Shown: piece after piece, positions 1,013 to 58,299 of the stretch
Layout: every line of letters begins with the position of its first letter
Position numbering within the stretch: position 1 is the first letter of the stretch
DNA from: a virus
Lineage: Duplodnaviria > Caudoviricetes
Reading direction: 5' to 3' (one strand)
IMG/VR virus record: IMGVR_UViG_3300012956_000016
Span: 19,935-83,934 of that record
Length of the DNA: 64,000 nucleotides
Position numbers and translations under genes: made by a program
Notes under the pieces: model-generated
The model's input: the letters and a program-made list of their open reading frames with translations, nothing else
What the model was told of the DNA's origin: nothing
Databases searched by the model: none

Positions 1013-4000
1013 ATGCCAGATCCTAATACTCCTATAACTCCACTTATAGGTAATACTGTAAATCCATTAACATTAGAAAACTCTGACTACAAAGTACCAG
1101 AGTTACCTAATACACCTATATATAAAGGTCCAGATACAAGTGTTAGTAAACAAGATATTGATAACATCAAGAATCAACCTAAGACTGTTTTTGGAGATAA
1201 GATTAAAGGTCTTGTTAAAAAAATGGATGATGCTCCTAAATGGGCGGCTGATTTAACTCCTTATGGAAAGGTAGTTAGTTACGATGCTGATTATACTGGA
1301 GCTAACTTCCAAAGATATTATAGCCACTCTAAGTTTCAACAACTTGGATTCTCTCCTTTCCGCGATAACGAAACTCTCTATAACCAAAAAGGAAACTGGA
1401 CAGACGAAGCAGGAAGAATGTTAAGAGGTTGGAGTAGTTTGTTTGCTACCGGTGCCATGGATGGTGTTAAATCCTGGGCTGATAATCCTTTTGATCCTGA
1501 ACCAGATAATGAGACAGCTCGTGATATGGAAAGAAAGATGTCAAGAATGACATCAAGTAAAGAAGGATTTGGTGCTGGTGTTGTAAACTTTGGTGCTAAC
1601 ACTGCATATTCAATGGGATTAGTTACTGAGTTTATAGCTGAGAGTGCTGCACTTGCTGCTGCTACTGCTATTACATTTGGTGCTGATGCTCCAGTTACTG
1701 CAAGTGTTGAAGCGGCTAGAGCTGCTACCCTTGCTAATAAGTTAGGTAACATGGGTAAGATGGTGTCTAATACATACAAGACACTTACTTCTCTTAAAGA
1801 TTTAAACACTGCAAAGAACTTCTTCAAATCAGTTAATGCTGGTGAGACTTTAGGTAAAGCTATGAAGTTCATCAATCCTCTTGAACAAACAACTGCTTTT
1901 ATTAAAGAGACTAACAAAGCATTAAAATCAGGAGAACAAGTTTATAATATGGCTAAAGCTGCCAAAGGATTTGGAGCTTTTATCAACGATATCAGACAAA
2001 CCCAAATGGTTATGTCTGAAGCTAACTTAGAAGGAGGCAGCGTAGAGAACGATATGGTTAAGCAATTAACCGATGACTTCTATAGAATCAATGGTCGTAT
2101 GCCTAATACAAGTGAGGCTTATGATATCAATAATACTGCAGGTATTGCTGGTAACAAAACCATAGCTTGGAACATGCCTGCTTTATATCTTAGTAATAAG
2201 ATCGTGTTTGAGAATGCTTTCAAAGGTTATAAACCTATGAGAATATTAGCTGCTGAAAACTCAGAAGGTCTTGCCGGTAAACTTGTTTTCAATCAATCAT
2301 GGAAAAAAGCTGGAGTTAATCCTTGGTCTGTTGTAGAAGATGGGTGGAAGAATAACTTAAAAAGTTTAACCAAAGCTTCAACATGGGCTCCTAAAAACTT
2401 AGCAAAGAACTTGCTTGTTAATGGTATTGGTTATACTAGTAAGAACTTAACTGAAGCTTTACAAGAACAGTATCAAGAAGCTGTATCCGGTTCAATGAAC
2501 CAATACTATACAAAGATTTATCAAGATCCTTCTAAAGCAGGTTCTGATGAAATGGGGTCTATCTTCACTGATAACTTATCTAAACAGTTTACTACAATGC
2601 AAGGGTTTGAAACTTTTGCTAGTGGTTTCTTTATGGGTGGTGTATTACAAGGTCCTCAAAAATTAGTATTTGAAAAGGTTCCTCAAAAGATCTTTCAAAT
2701 GAAAAGTCCTGAACAATATGCTGAAAGAAAAAAACAAACACAAGAATGGACTGATAAAGTAGTTGAGTCATTAAATGAAGTAACTAAAGATCCTGCTGCA
2801 TATTTTAATACTGCTTCTGAGAACATGGTTGTTCAACGTAGTAGCAACACAAGTATGCGTGAAGCTAATGAAAACAATGATGAGAAATCATTCCGCGATA
2901 TAGCTGATGAGTCTACTTTTAATCACTTACACACTGTTATTAACTCAGGTAAGTATGATCTTATATTAGGTCACTTAAGAGATATGAAACAGTTGTCTCC
3001 TGAAGAACTTCAGGATGCTTTTGGGCCAGTGCCTACTAAACAAGATCCTCAAACTTATTATAATAACAAAGTTGATAGCTTAATAAGAAGAGCTGAAGAT
3101 ATTAAAAAAAGAAGTGATGCTGTAAACGAACAGTTTATGAATCCTTTTAATCCTTACAAGTATAGTAAGACTACAGAGAACGAAGCATACATAGGTGAGT
3201 TCATAAGATACAAAGCTTATGAAGATGCTAAAAAAGCAGCTGTTTATTCTCAACATACCTTCGATAGAACATTAAGTCGCATGAAGGATATTATAACTGA
3301 TGTTACTAATGATATTCCTATTTCCAAAGCCAACTCAACTGACTTCACTTTACTATTTGATAGTAAGGCTCTTGACAATGAGATCAATGCATTAGACTTA
3401 GAAGTAAAAGCTTTCACTGGTGGTGGAAATGCTCAACAAAGACAACAAGCTAAATTATCTCAAGATAAGAAAGAAGCTCTTGAAGAGTTACGTAGTAACA
3501 TTAATCACTACCGTTCTGGATTAAAAGATAATACCAGCAAGAATAAATCTGACGAAAGAAACAGAGCAACTACTGTTCAGAAAGGATCTAAAGTAAGAAA
3601 TGTTAAAGATGGTTCTGAAGGTGTTGTAGAAAAGGTAGTTGGTAAATATGCTATCTTAAAAGACGGTACAAAAGTTAATAGAAAGTATTTAGAAAACAAA
3701 AACAAGAAAGTTCAACCAGATCATCATTTGGATGAAGCTCTTGATATGTTTTACAGTTCATATAAGAACTACTTATCTACGATTGCTAACATATCGAAAG
3801 ATCATATCTTCGAAGATAAAGTAAACGACTCATTCGCTAAGCTTAAAGATTACTATGGATTAGAGCATGACTCTGATGGATTAGCAAACAGTATTAACTT
3901 ATTACATAACCCAAGTTCTTTCATAGATTACTCTAAGCAAATGGAAGAAGTACGTAGATCTCTTTATGAGAAACGTACTGAACATACCAAAAAAGCTTTA

Positions 4001-5707
4001 GAAGAATATATGAAGATTAAAGATCAAAACGAGTTGCTTAATAAGTTACTTGAAGATGGTGTTTATATTCATCCTGATGATGTAAAACCTTTACTTGATA
4101 CTAAGATCATTCCGGAAAAACTTTTTGATGTTATCAACTACGAAGAGTTACAACCTTCATCTGAGAAATATCAAAAAGGTTTAGAGTCTATCACACAATG
4201 GATAGAAGCAACTAGTGTTCCTGTTGAAGAAGAAACTCCTACAGCTGAACCTGTTACTCCAGAAGGACCTGTTGATGTTGTTCCTATTAGTGAGATCACT
4301 AAAATAACTAACACAACTCCTTTGTCTGATATGCCATCTGATTTAGTTGATGACTTAATCGAAGCATTTCGTGCAGAGAATCGTAGTAGAGTATCTAATG
4401 GTGAAGACTTAATAGGTAACTACAAACCAGATAATGATAATTATACTGTTAGAAGTTTACCTGGATTCAAAAGTTATGTTACAGTATTCAGTAAACCTAG
4501 AGCTATCATAGCTGAGTTTAACACACGTACTGGTAGAACTGTTGATCAAGTTGTTCCTGAAGTTAAAAAAGAAGAGCCTAAAGTAGCTCAAGTATCTTTG
4601 ATCATAACAAATGATATGAAACAACAGTTATATGATCTTGGTTATTCTAAAGAAGATGTAAACAAATTACGTCCTGCAGAAGCTAATCATCTCATCTCTG
4701 GTAACATAACTAAACCAGTAAAAGCATTAACTCCTGAAGAGGATATCGAAAGAAGAAGGCAGAAAGAATTAGAAGGATATTACGGTTATGGTAATGTAGT
4801 AAAAAGATTATTAAGTGAACATAAACCTACATTGGCTTTATCGCAATTATATTTTACAGGAGATAATGATATAGAGATTACAGTAGATGGTAAAAAATAT
4901 AAGATTGTTAAAGACGGTAAATACTTAGCAAAAAATGTTATAGATGAATCTGGTAATATTGTTGCTAAGTTTACTGTAACTAATGGTACAAGTGATGTTA
5001 TAGAAGATCGTGGATTAATGAATAAAAAAACTTTTTATGATTTCATATCTCGTATAGAAAATGATATACCATCAGAATATCGACAAAAACTTATAGATGA
5101 AATCAATACTAAATATGATGCAGAAATAGCTGCTTTAAAACAAGATCCTAAAGCTCTTAAAACTATTGAAGATATATTCAAAGATGCAACGACTCTTGAA
5201 GAGATTGAACAAGCCGAGGAAGAAGTACTAGCTACTTTAGCTAATCCAGAAGCTCGTAGAAAAATCAACCTTACTAATGAGTTCTTAGTGAACTTGATAG
5301 AAACTCGTAAAAGAGAACTTCTTACTGCGTTTACTTACGAAGAAATCGTACCAGGGAACGTATTAGTAATGTCAGATAATTCTAAAATGTTAGTGGTAGA
5401 AAAATCGGATACTGAGTTAAAATTGCGTAAATTTGGTGACGAGGGAGACAACTTTACTATAGTTAAAAAAGATGTTGTTCCTACAACAATCAAGTACAAG
5501 TACAAAGAAGGTATGGAAGATTTAAACATAAATAAACCAGTTACTCCAGAGGAGAAAGAGATTTCAAATCAGAGTGTGCAAAACTTCACTGAGTTCAATG
5601 AAGATGATGATGCTGCTTCTGTAGATGAAGATATGAAGAAAGCTTCTTCTATGTCGAAAGAAGATCGTAATGATGACTTAACTAATATTCTAGGCTGTAA
5701 AAAATAA
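1013..5707 (+). CDS. Large virion cargo/ejection protein (1564 aa) with hydrophobic segment and SH3/KOW-like inserts
   Basis: Long ORF immediately before the vRNAP; hydrophobic Ala/Gly-rich stretch GFGAGVVNFG...AALAAATAITFG; DIERRRQKEL...INTKYDAEIAAL module; function inferred from position. Confidence 0.7.
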   Translation: MPDPNTPITPLIGNTVNPLTLENSDYKVPELPNTPIYKGPDTSVSKQDIDNIKNQPKTVFGDKIKGLVKKMDDAPKWAADLTPYGKVVSYDADYTGANFQRYYSHSKFQQLGFSPFRDNETLYNQKGNWTDEAGRMLRGWSSLFATGAMDGVKSWADNPFDPEPDNETARDMERKMSRMTSSKEGFGAGVVNFGANTAYSMGLVTEFIAESAALAAATAITFGADAPVTASVEAARAATLANKLGNMGKMVSNTYKTLTSLKDLNTAKNFFKSVNAGETLGKAMKFINPLEQTTAFIKETNKALKSGEQVYNMAKAAKGFGAFINDIRQTQMVMSEANLEGGSVENDMVKQLTDDFYRINGRMPNTSEAYDINNTAGIAGNKTIAWNMPALYLSNKIVFENAFKGYKPMRILAAENSEGLAGKLVFNQSWKKAGVNPWSVVEDGWKNNLKSLTKASTWAPKNLAKNLLVNGIGYTSKNLTEALQEQYQEAVSGSMNQYYTKIYQDPSKAGSDEMGSIFTDNLSKQFTTMQGFETFASGFFMGGVLQGPQKLVFEKVPQKIFQMKSPEQYAERKKQTQEWTDKVVESLNEVTKDPAAYFNTASENMVVQRSSNTSMREANENNDEKSFRDIADESTFNHLHTVINSGKYDLILGHLRDMKQLSPEELQDAFGPVPTKQDPQTYYNNKVDSLIRRAEDIKKRSDAVNEQFMNPFNPYKYSKTTENEAYIGEFIRYKAYEDAKKAAVYSQHTFDRTLSRMKDIITDVTNDIPISKANSTDFTLLFDSKALDNEINALDLEVKAFTGGGNAQQRQQAKLSQDKKEALEELRSNINHYRSGLKDNTSKNKSDERNRATTVQKGSKVRNVKDGSEGVVEKVVGKYAILKDGTKVNRKYLENKNKKVQPDHHLDEALDMFYSSYKNYLSTIANISKDHIFEDKVNDSFAKLKDYYGLEHDSDGLANSINLLHNPSSFIDYSKQMEEVRRSLYEKRTEHTKKALEEYMKIKDQNELLNKLLEDGVYIHPDDVKPLLDTKIIPEKLFDVINYEELQPSSEKYQKGLESITQWIEATSVPVEEETPTAEPVTPEGPVDVVPISEITKITNTTPLSDMPSDLVDDLIEAFRAENRSRVSNGEDLIGNYKPDNDNYTVRSLPGFKSYVTVFSKPRAIIAEFNTRTGRTVDQVVPEVKKEEPKVAQVSLIITNDMKQQLYDLGYSKEDVNKLRPAEANHLISGNITKPVKALTPEEDIERRRQKELEGYYGYGNVVKRLLSEHKPTLALSQLYFTGDNDIEITVDGKKYKIVKDGKYLAKNVIDESGNIVAKFTVTNGTSDVIEDRGLMNKKTFYDFISRIENDIPSEYRQKLIDEINTKYDAEIAALKQDPKALKTIEDIFKDATTLEEIEQAEEEVLATLANPEARRKINLTNEFLVNLIETRKRELLTAFTYEEIVPGNVLVMSDNSKMLVVEKSDTELKLRKFGDEGDNFTIVKKDVVPTTIKYKYKEGMEDLNINKPVTPEEKEISNQSVQNFTEFNEDDDAASVDEDMKKASSMSKEDRNDDLTNILGCKK

Positions 5708-56279: not shown

Positions 56280-56353
56280 GGGTCAGAATAGGATTTGAAC
56301 CTATGTTTCGTTCATCGGTTAGAACGCGTCCTAACCAGTTAAACGATCTGACA
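56280..56353 (-). tRNA. tRNA-like gene with 8-nt anticodon loop (identity undetermined, possibly pseudo)
   Basis: GTCAGA/TCTGAC acceptor, GTTT/GGAC D-stem with GG, CGTTC-TAACCGAT-GAACG, ATAGG-TTCAAAT-CCTAT T-arm. Confidence 0.65.
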
Positions 56354-56578: not shown

Positions 56579-56650
56579 TAGCGGGAGGTGGATTTGAACC
56601 ACCGACCTCGAGATTATGAGTCTCGCGAGCTACCCCTGCTCTATCCCGCA
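56579..56650 (-). tRNA. tRNA-Met(CAT), initiator-like
   Basis: Cloverleaf; anticodon CAT at 56618-56616; T1:T72 mismatch and A11:T24 pair; CCA not encoded. Confidence 0.9.
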
Positions 56651-57075
56651 ATGTTGTTTTGTACATGTTTAATGTAAGACTTTAATACTCCATCAATATT
56701 AGCTTTTCCAACAGGATTAGCTGATTGCATGTTATACTTTGGTAATTCTTTATTGTGATCCATACAGTAGTTAACTAACCACTTAGCACAGTCATATCCT
56801 GTAAGTTCATGTTCTGGCCACGGTTGACCATCAAAATATTCAGGATAACCATTTCTAAAAGCTTGATAATCTCCTAAATCATGATCAAAGCAAATAGCAT
56901 CAGGTAAACCATTAGTTGTTATCCAAGCTACGAACTCATTATAAGACTTAACCCAGATTACTTCAAAAGGTTGTTGTATAGGACTAAAAGTCCAAGCCCA
57001 TTTACTCTCACCAGGACAATATCCAAGAGGATCACGGTAATCATCAAGCCACAGTAGTTTTTTCATTAGTGACAC
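56641..57075 (-). CDS. Cyclic-phosphate-processing receiver (cREC) domain protein
   Basis: LWLDDYRDP, VKSYNEF, ICFDHDLG, TGYDCAKWL, QSANPVG. Confidence 0.8.
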   Translation of the reverse strand: MSLMKKLLWLDDYRDPLGYCPGESKWAWTFSPIQQPFEVIWVKSYNEFVAWITTNGLPDAICFDHDLGDYQAFRNGYPEYFDGQPWPEHELTGYDCAKWLVNYCMDHNKELPKYNMQSANPVGKANIDGVLKSYIKHVQNNIAG

Positions 57076-57298: not shown

Positions 57299-57327
57299 AA
57301 AAAAGTCCAGATCATTCGACCTGGACT
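57299..57327 (-). terminator. Intrinsic terminator downstream of tmRNA/tRNA-Pro
   Basis: AGTCCAG/CTGGACT stem followed by T5. Confidence 0.7.
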
Positions 57328-57418
57328 CACATGACCCCTGTCTTATGGTCCATTGTTTGACAACATTAACAGTCTTTACCACAAACTCGGTCAACGAGCA
57401 GAGTTGAACATGCATTCG

Positions 57419-57492
57419 TCGAGATGGCCAGATTCGAACTGACGGCCTCCACGTCCCAAACGTGGCGCGATACCGGGCTACGCTACATCTCG
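57419..57492 (-). tRNA. tRNA-Pro(TGG)
   Basis: CGAGATG/CATCTCG acceptor, CCACG-TTTGGGA-CGTGG, TTCGAAT T-loop; CCA not encoded. Confidence 0.93.
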
Positions 57493-57585
57493 TGGTATGG
57501 GTAACAGTATTACTACCGAAGCTACTACCCCATCTTTGATTGTTTATACCTGTCCGTAGCTGGGTCGTAAATATAAACTAACCTG

Positions 57586-57970
57586 TGGACCCGGAGAGAT
57601 TCGAACTCTCGTCCAAATAATGAATAAAAATGCTTTCTACGATGTTTAGTACTGACGAACTGTACTGTAGATATTACACCTTTTTACTCTTAGGTTGAGG
57701 ATCTTTGGTAGAAGCAGAACACACCCTGCTTCAACTACCATACGGTGTTCGGTTAGGCTGCTACTAACTCTCTTTTTGCAGTAGCTTTAACAGCACCTGC
57801 GAAATCGAATTTTACAACTTTACCTTCAGCGGCAATAACATCTTGGATGTTACCTACCTCGTTAGAAACGATAGCTTTTATCTTTTGAAAGTTCAGATTA
57901 AAGTGCTCTACGGACAACGCACTACATGCTTACATTTTTACCGCGATTACTGTCAAAACCGGTCGGGCCC
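57586..57970 (-). ncRNA. ssrA: Transfer-messenger RNA (tmRNA)
   Basis: 5' GGGCCCGACCGGTTTTGACAG; 3' GGACGAGAGTTCGAATCTCTCCGGGTCCA; G3:U70 pair and A73; tag ORF 57875-57753 ending LVAA*. Confidence 0.93.
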
Positions 57971-57990
57971 ATTATTTTAAAGAACTGGAA

Positions 57991-58021
57991 CAAAGATAAT
58001 ACTTAATCTTTGTATTCCAAA
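57991..58021 (-). promoter_or_regulatory. Consensus Bacteroidota promoter driving tmRNA
   Basis: TTTG (58021-58018), 19-nt spacer, TATCTTTG (57998-57991), 20 nt upstream of the tmRNA 5' end. Confidence 0.75.
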
Positions 58022-58299
58022 AGTTCTAGCTTTTTAACTAAGTGTTGCATCTGAGGAGAAAGAGCAACAGATGTTCCAAATCTTTTACCTTCATCTGTAT
58101 AGATTTTTCTCATAATCTTTATTAGGATAGTAGCATGACCTTTGTTAGGATCAGAACTATCTATACTATATATGGTAGCGAAGTCTTCACCTACACCACA
58201 TGTAGCTTGACATGATTCATATTCCCAACCATCTAACTCCATACCAAGAGAGTTTACTTTTCCTCTTTTGTAAGCGATTATTGTGCTTTTATCTTCCAT
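58003..58299 (-). CDS. Small GNAT-like protein
   Basis: ATIYSIDSSDPNKGHATILIK resembles GNAT motif A. Confidence 0.5.
   Translation of the reverse strand: MEDKSTIIAYKRGKVNSLGMELDGWEYESCQATCGVGEDFATIYSIDSSDPNKGHATILIKIMRKIYTDEGKRFGTSVALSPQMQHLVKKLELLEYKD

Follow-up and report, generated by a model that had tools for sequence, protein, structure and literature searches.

Textbook tmRNA tags are short degrons, and a locus in the genome of an uncultivated tailed phage raises the question of whether a tmRNA can carry a much longer template and have all of it read by stalled ribosomes. The DNA analysed here (hereafter the window) is a stretch of 64,000 nucleotides that forms the final 64 kb of an 83.9-kb IMG/VR virus record with a completeness estimate of 70%. 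The contig encodes a phage DNA polymerase, a helicase and HNH genes, together with three giant ORFs. Its assignment to the crAss-like phages was considered and is unsupported: many unrelated phages have polymerases to which its own is about 33% identical, and PHROGs gave no match for the giant ORFs.

From the letters of the window alone, the original prediction proposed a phage-encoded tmRNA with an unusually long tag of 40 codons, a host-type promoter of its own and a presumed reliance on host SmpB. Phage tmRNAs are known (PMC4131195); they are present in about 2.3% of sequenced phages (PMC9004378) and have also been found in huge phages (PMC7162821).

A one-piece tmRNA of Bacteroidota type

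The Rfam tmRNA model RF00023 matches the window at 57583–57970 on the minus strand over its full length (model positions 1–374), with a score of 67.5 bits (E value of 3.8e-24) and a gathering score of 47 bits. Of the two programs suggested for checking the call, Rfam thus supports it and ARAGORN misses the gene: a default run reports only tRNA-Met and tRNA-Pro in the window, and runs with relaxed thresholds either yield no call or place a spurious one on the wrong strand.

Direct reading of the minus strand reveals the features expected of a tmRNA. The 7-bp acceptor stem is formed by GGGCCCG (57970–57964) and CGGGUCC (57593–57587), which gives the G3:U70 pair, and is followed by a discriminator A at 57586. 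The next three nucleotides are CAG, and thus CCA is not encoded. A T-arm (GAGAG-UUCGAAU-CUCUC, 57610–57594) with a UUCGAAU-type loop, the lack of an anticodon arm and a long helix 2 that closes the ring complete the tmRNA shape. The predicted tRNA-like domain, complete with G3:U70 and A73, is therefore confirmed both by the full-model match and by this reading. G3 stands opposite U in all 29 distinct tmRNAs of a first set found with a degenerate 5′-end pattern.

Table 1. Features of the phage tmRNA locus, in window coordinates
Feature	Position	Strand	Detail or basis
Promoter-like site, Bacteroidota type	57991–58021	−	TTTG (−33), 19 nt, TATCTTTG (−7); ends 20 nt 5′ of tmRNA G1
tmRNA gene, 385 nt, G1 to discriminator A	57586–57970	−	Rfam RF00023 and direct reading
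Acceptor stem 5′ strand, GGGCCCG	57964–57970	−	G3 pairs with U at 57589
PK1 region	57894–57923	−	Stem 1 AGUGC/GCACU, nt 48–52/65–69
Upstream pentamer UAAAA, frame-setting	57876–57880	−	A at −4 is the counterpart of E. coli A86
Tag reading frame, 40 codons, GCU to final LVAA	57756–57875	−	Translation
Stop codon UAA	57753–57755	−	Translation
In-frame hairpin, tag codons 6–15	57831–57858	−	Apical stem ACAUC/GAUGU
Terminal hairpin of coding part, helix-5-like	57760–57785	−	GCUACU/AGUAGC; directly precedes the stop
3′ domain, putatively rich in pseudoknots (PK2–PK4 region)	57650–57752	−	Most variable part of the RNA
T-arm, acceptor 3′ strand CGGGUCC and discriminator A	57586–57610	−	Direct reading
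tRNA-Pro (UGG)	57418–57492	−	93 nt 3′ of tmRNA; ARAGORN and Rfam
Terminator-like hairpin with T run	57303–57328	−	3′ of tRNA-Pro

The first 21 nt of the RNA are identical in 70 contigs of species-representative genomes, 68 of which are titled Bacteroidota. The resemblance to the one-piece SsrA of these bacteria extends to the type of the 3′ tRNA-like end, the G3:U70 pair, the discriminator A and the unencoded CCA, as well as to the overall order of the tRNA-like domain (TLD), helix 2 (H2), putative PK1, tag and predicted pseudoknots, the A at −4 and the Ala-Ala end of the tag. The phage RNA differs in its 40-residue tag, set against host tags of 9–10 residues of the GENNYAMAA, GESNYALAA and GEENSYAMAA types to which it is unrelated in sequence except for the last residues, and in an extra in-frame hairpin, a weak second stem of PK1 and a location in a phage genome beside tRNA genes. 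By sequence and predicted fold, the locus is a real one-piece phage tmRNA of Bacteroidota type.

Relatives and genomic surroundings

A blastn search of the locus against 50,697 phage records gave nothing close, the only match being one of 64 nt to the tRNA-like end. Searches of viral and metagenome contigs with tag peptide patterns likewise returned no relatives, and a degenerate, back-translated core pattern had no match in viral contigs. Relatives were reached via the tRNA-like 5′ end, a neighbouring gene for a cREC_REC protein, contigs that align to the locus and a cluster of ORFs predicted by gene callers. In the last case, a protein-database search with a 54-codon ORF at the locus found only the cluster of the window itself, and this cluster then led to the locus called L340.

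Four relatives proved informative. L340 (with L341) belongs to a phage that is syntenic with the window but diverged, with 45–70% identity between the flanking proteins of the two. X3 is a freshwater contig from a separate study that covers 57584–57972 with 20 substitutions and 5 indels, and it falls under the 80% likeness cut-off outside the tmRNA at both ends. L245 is a phage-like metagenome contig with three DNA methyltransferases; its tmRNA (positions 3784–4183) is 57% identical overall to that of the window and carries a homologous 43-codon tag, and its flanks have nothing in common with the window. L099 is a viral contig with a cREC_REC gene and a tmRNA whose 39-codon tag has an NEVG..DV core, an EL-x-x-AA end and one compensated frameshift. 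Together with the window, these loci form a group with tags of 39–43 codons, an NEVG..DV core that lies over an ACAUC/GAUGU hairpin and an (E)L-x-AA end, the close relatives being few and not mutually independent.

In L340, the fourth acceptor pair changes from C-G to U-A and a T-stem pair from A-U to G-C, both compensatory, and G3:U70 is retained. In PK1 of the window, stem 1 (5 bp) is clear and the second stem is weak or ambiguous, with only 4–5-bp candidates, none of which has covariation support; PK1 of L245 is a clear H-type pseudoknot with stems of 5 and 7 bp. The PK2–PK4 region aligns to the Rfam model with low posterior probability. Within this region, X3 has a strong hairpin with one compensatory change (GGUAG/CUACC to GGUAC/GUACC).

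The tRNA-Pro (UGG) gene and the tmRNA gene probably share one transcription unit. L340 has the same gene order, with tRNA-Pro about 12 nt 3′ of the tmRNA. A third tRNA-like gene at 56280–56353 on the minus strand (Rfam tRNA score of 35 bits against a cut-off of 29, without an ARAGORN call) stands in the same minus-strand row of RNA genes as tRNA-Met, tRNA-Pro and the tmRNA. When about 20 neighbouring ORFs were compared with Pfam and PHROGs, the sole match was the cREC_REC protein (144 residues, 56641–57075, minus strand; PF20274, ‘cyclic-phosphate processing receiver’, E value of 3e-21). Its gene lies about 500 nt 3′ of the tmRNA–tRNA-Pro unit and is missing from L340; the protein has relatives in 51 viral contigs, a good number of which come from very large phages, and a full tmRNA is also present in 5 of the 50 records scanned. 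Directly 5′ of the promoter-like site of the tmRNA is a 98-codon ORF (58003–58299, minus strand) with no L340 counterpart. Homology with L340 jumps from about 58298 to 58004 in window numbering, and the ORF is thus a recent gain or loss beside the tmRNA.

Resume codon and reading frame

In the Rfam alignment, UAAAAGCU falls on the resume region of the consensus at high posterior probability, which places the resume codon at GCU 57875–57873. Its context, UAAAA|GCU, has U at −5 and A at −4; in E. coli, it is A86 that fixes the frame, at a point four bases further 3′ (Miller et al., PMC2481249). The corresponding pentamer is UAAAU in L340 and CAAAU in L245, and that of the window agrees with the pentamers of 14 sister phage tmRNAs with 23-codon tags.

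Translation from this GCU yields 40 sense codons followed by UAA at 57755–57753, precisely the frame that had been predicted, and a tag with the C terminus LVAA. The frame is internal and opens with a G-starting codon, without a start codon or Shine–Dalgarno sequence. The remaining two frames contain 4 and 5 stops across the same interval. LVAA-UAA stands immediately after the GCUACU/AGUAGC hairpin, the span of which includes the last codons. The predicted position of the resume codon, 57875, is supported on two grounds: the Rfam alignment, and the four relatives that keep the frame under purifying selection, as described below.

Conservation of the tag peptide

The tmRNAs of L340 and the window differ at 38 positions in total. 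These are distributed as 6 of 47 in the 5′ part of the TLD and H2, 8 of 48 in PK1 and the spacer, 4 of 123 in the tag, 13 of 103 in PK2–4 and 7 of 64 in the 3′ part. The tag is thus the best-conserved part of the RNA, against 10–17% divergence elsewhere. Moreover, each of the four tag changes (codons 16, 23, 26 and 31) falls on a third position and is synonymous, such that the peptide is identical at 40 of 40 residues. A similar pattern is observed for X3, in which the only tag change (codon 16, GCU to GCA) is also synonymous; of the other substitutions, H2 has one, a second is close to the 3′ end and 17 fall in PK2–4, which also contains all of the indels.

The more distant L245 allows a codon-by-codon comparison. 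Among 37 aligned codons, 13 are identical, 12 differ synonymously and 12 encode a changed residue, with 9, 7 and 21 differences at first, second and third codon positions, respectively. All indels are whole codons, and the similarity of the two peptides has a z value of 10 against shuffles. These substitution patterns demonstrate strong purifying selection on the predicted tag peptide. That the peptide stays fixed as the remainder of the RNA and the neighbouring phage genes diverge indicates that it is the peptide itself that is used.

A hairpin within the reading frame

Codons 6–15 form a 12-bp hairpin (57858–57831), with its start 17 nt past the resume codon. The window, L245 and L099 share its apical stem, ACAUC/GAUGU, and the lower stem differs in sequence among the three with pairing retained. 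In L099, one base is lost and another gained about 12 nt away; the letters of the hairpin are kept through this pair of changes, which also restores the frame. This retention demonstrates strong purifying selection on the predicted in-frame hairpin. Codons 1–15 are invariant in the two close relatives (L340 and X3). The core is kept as an RNA hairpin too, and selection on these codons is therefore inseparable between peptide and hairpin, which weakens the peptide argument for codons 1–15 alone.

The 23-nt hairpin core of L099 recurs in frame, as EVGTS.DV, in seven viral contigs (L332–L338), where it sits in a repeat-rich, tail-fibre-like gene with GNVTG repeats. A search of viral contigs with the hairpin-core pattern found only the L099 contig and those seven. 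One independent gene family is about what is expected by chance for this pattern, and thus the tail-fibre-like match is probably a coincidence.

Alternatives to a fully translated tag

The hairpin bears directly on the alternative that survives best, which we nonetheless regard as unlikely. Here, the RNA is a working tmRNA that resumes in frame after the hairpin (UAAAA|UUC in the window, codon 23), such that the tag has roughly 18–25 residues and the first 22 codons serve as an untranslated structured spacer. In-frame A-rich pentamers do follow the hairpin in the window, in L245 and in L099 (GAAAA|GGA), and ARAGORN starts the L245 tag further downstream, at an in-frame UAAAU|GCA, which leaves 22 residues. 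However, the downstream site of the window would resume on a Phe codon, whereas the first site lies at the usual place after PK1 and has a typical Ala/Asp resume codon in all members. Resume codons are mostly Ala and sometimes Gly (review, PMC3968760). In favour of the later site, the distance between PK1 and the frame-setting bases is reported not to be critical (Miller et al., PMC2481249), and the remainder would match the 23–25 residues common to most sister phage tmRNAs.

The hairpin is also kept at the RNA level, in L099 despite the −1/+1 frameshift pair, as would suit a structured spacer. Yet the frame lost in this sole frameshift is regained within some 12 nt, a repair that would be needless in an untranslated spacer, and all other upstream indels are whole codons. 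The upstream 21–22 codons lack stops in three divergent members, whereas the other frames are full of them, and 10 of the 17 differences between the window and L245 over codons 1–19 fall at third positions. That the frame is repaired, that indels come in whole codons and that stops are absent all speak for ribosomes translating the hairpin part. On this comparative evidence, the 40-codon tag is likely to be translated in full.

The conservation of the template also weighs on the idea that the RNA is a decoy that mainly soaks up host SmpB or AlaRS and thereby shuts down host trans-translation, with a coding part that is irrelevant. A role of this sort has been proposed for phage molecules made up of the TLD only. 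Phages that carry little beyond the tRNA-like domain of a tmRNA have been described, and one such molecule is inhibitory to tmRNA (PMC4131195); the lack of a detected phage SmpB gene would fit as well. Still, we judge this idea very improbable, because a pure decoy would not maintain a template that is the best-conserved part of the RNA and in which every change in L340 and X3 is synonymous.

Finally, it is hardly credible that the locus is an ordinary small-protein gene in which a 54-codon ORF (57753–57917) is translated from TTG at 57917 and the tmRNA likeness is a relic: although gene callers do call this ORF and it is recorded as a predicted protein, it has no Pfam family match, conservation does not extend to the residues 5′ of the resume codon, the intact tRNA-like domain has evolved by compensatory changes, and L245 has an in-frame TAA three codons 5′ of the resume codon with no start codon in between, so that ordinary initiation cannot account for the conserved frame.

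Tag lengths in hosts and phages

The fully read tag of the preferred reading can be compared with those of bacteria and other phages. Among Bacteroidota tmRNAs with the same 5′ end, tags have 9–10 residues in 63 of 63 readable cases (after correction of over-long heuristic calls), and the window tag is about four times this length. Mycoplasma-type tags of about 27 residues, which are chromosomal, occur in hosts without ClpXP and are degraded by Lon. They offer a precedent for a longer tag body that carries a non-ClpXP protease signal; they share no sequence likeness with the window tag, which keeps the canonical Ala-Ala end. The published range of tag lengths is 8–35 residues (review, PMC3968760), which is exceeded by the 40 codons of the window, the 43 of L245 and the 39 of L099.

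In viral and metagenome contigs with the same kind of tRNA-like domain, by contrast with the host, tags span 17–43 residues, and long tags are thus usual for phages of this tmRNA type. The description of the window tag as unusually long is accordingly right against bacterial tags and the published range, but not against its sister phage tmRNAs, among which the NEVG group has the longest tags.

Three groups can be recognized: a large FTFEDAM group with tags of 23–25 residues, an AQIEANM group with 27–39 and the NEVG group of the window with 39–43. Among the individual loci are tags of 35 residues (L163) and 24 (L063/L144). All three groups have the Bacteroidota-type tRNA-like domain, the same kind of resume pentamer, a tag far longer than that of the host with an Ala-Ala-like end and a conserved peptide. 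The window group is the third and rarer, and it stands out by the coincidence of its NEVG..DV core with an RNA hairpin and by the longest tags found. Pairwise differences among 14 FTFEDAM members number 301, 254 and 903 at first, second and third codon positions, which shows the predicted FTFEDAM tags to be under peptide-level selection from their first codons. The core S-T-F-T-F-E-D-A-M is almost invariant across many viral and metagenome contigs (L063/L144, L075/L145 and L155–L228), and one member lies in a genome of 181.6 kb, with a completeness rating of 100%, in which SmpB is absent. The window tag bears a loose resemblance to an FTF-type tag with a 17-codon insert (AxVSN ... FDF).

Like the tmRNAs of the mycobacteriophage Bxz1 group, Bacillus phage G and Melnitz, that of the window is a full tmRNA without an SmpB gene of its own. 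Unlike the Melnitz tmRNA, which is two-piece and riboswitch-linked, it is one-piece, of Bacteroidota type and missed by ARAGORN. The accounts of known phage tmRNAs in PMC4131195 and PMC9004378 report no longer-than-host or peptide-selected tag families, and literature searches turned up no publication about long tags in phages.

In L245, the tag called by ARAGORN is half the length supported by comparative data. Given that the program, the standard tool for tmRNA annotation, also misses the window tmRNA, phage tmRNAs are probably under-counted and their tags mis-reported by pipelines that depend on it. Unusual architectures were also encountered. In L250 (Ga0172367_10021607, 1631–2011), three copies of the 21-nt tmRNA 5′ end occur on one strand with a spacing of exactly 180 nt; the array looks like tandem partial tmRNA 5′ segments and adjoins a normal 362-nt tmRNA with a 9-residue tag. 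L202 and L233 contain tmRNA-like genes of 607 and 563 nt (acceptor 5′ to 3′ strand), compared with the usual 360–410 nt.

Putative promoter and SmpB

The TTTG-N19-TATCTTTG element at 58021–57991 on the minus strand, which ends 20 nt before G1, fits the Bacteroides −33/−7 promoter consensus. The motif has 3 matches in 64 kb against 2.5 expected, and only the position of this match is therefore telling. The box is partly conserved in relatives (TACTTTTG in X3 and TATATTTA in L340), and TAnnTTTG precedes 3 of 28 other phage tmRNAs, indicating that the motif is not a family trait. A match of Bacteroidota type thus stands at the predicted place, but it is only partly kept in X3 and L340 and rare upstream of other phage tmRNAs. 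Among sequencing runs recorded as RNA, none contains the stretch, a result that speaks neither for nor against its expression.

The absence of an smpB gene, originally noted for the window, extends to the whole 83.9-kb contig (estimated to be 70% complete), in which SmpB (PF01668) was not found. Nor was it found in two related, tmRNA-bearing phage genomes rated 100% complete. The ClpP and SspB families were also not found in the contig.

A proposed role for the long tag

We think it probable that the locus encodes a working one-piece tmRNA of an uncultivated tailed phage with a Bacteroidota host, and that a stalled ribosome would read all 40 codons of its tag. In this model, the gene would be transcribed from its own promoter, probably jointly with the downstream tRNA-Pro. 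Host RNase P and 3′ nucleases would trim the RNA, the host CCA-adding enzyme would complete its 3′ end and host AlaRS would charge it with alanine through the G3:U70 pair. Working with host SmpB, the tmRNA would enter a stalled ribosome, on which the A four bases 5′ of GCU at 57875 would set the frame. The rescued protein would thereby gain an alanine and 40 residues ending in LVAA, a putative ClpXP-type degron.

A tag that is about four times the host length and strictly conserved probably does more than mark proteins for destruction. Our best guess is that it still routes proteins to proteolysis and that its conserved body is a handle for a binding partner or adaptor. We further guess that the gene keeps ribosomes running when infection or host RNA-cutting defences yield broken mRNAs.

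A broader interpretation is tentative: that Bacteroidota phages have evolved tmRNA families of their own in which the tag is more than a degron, namely a conserved functional peptide of 23–43 residues by which the phage would, during infection, re-programme the fate of every protein that a stalled ribosome releases. Equally speculative is its application to the present locus, where the peptide would comprise 41 residues with an embedded conserved RNA hairpin. The retention of a host-like tRNA end with a tag four times longer offers a testable handle on why phages carry tmRNA, and the frozen peptide points to a possible partner that reads the tag. If the interpretation is correct, the tag could pass stalled-ribosome proteins to a specific host or phage factor, the hairpin could govern the loading of the coding part into the ribosome, and such tmRNAs would constitute a new layer of phage takeover over host quality control.
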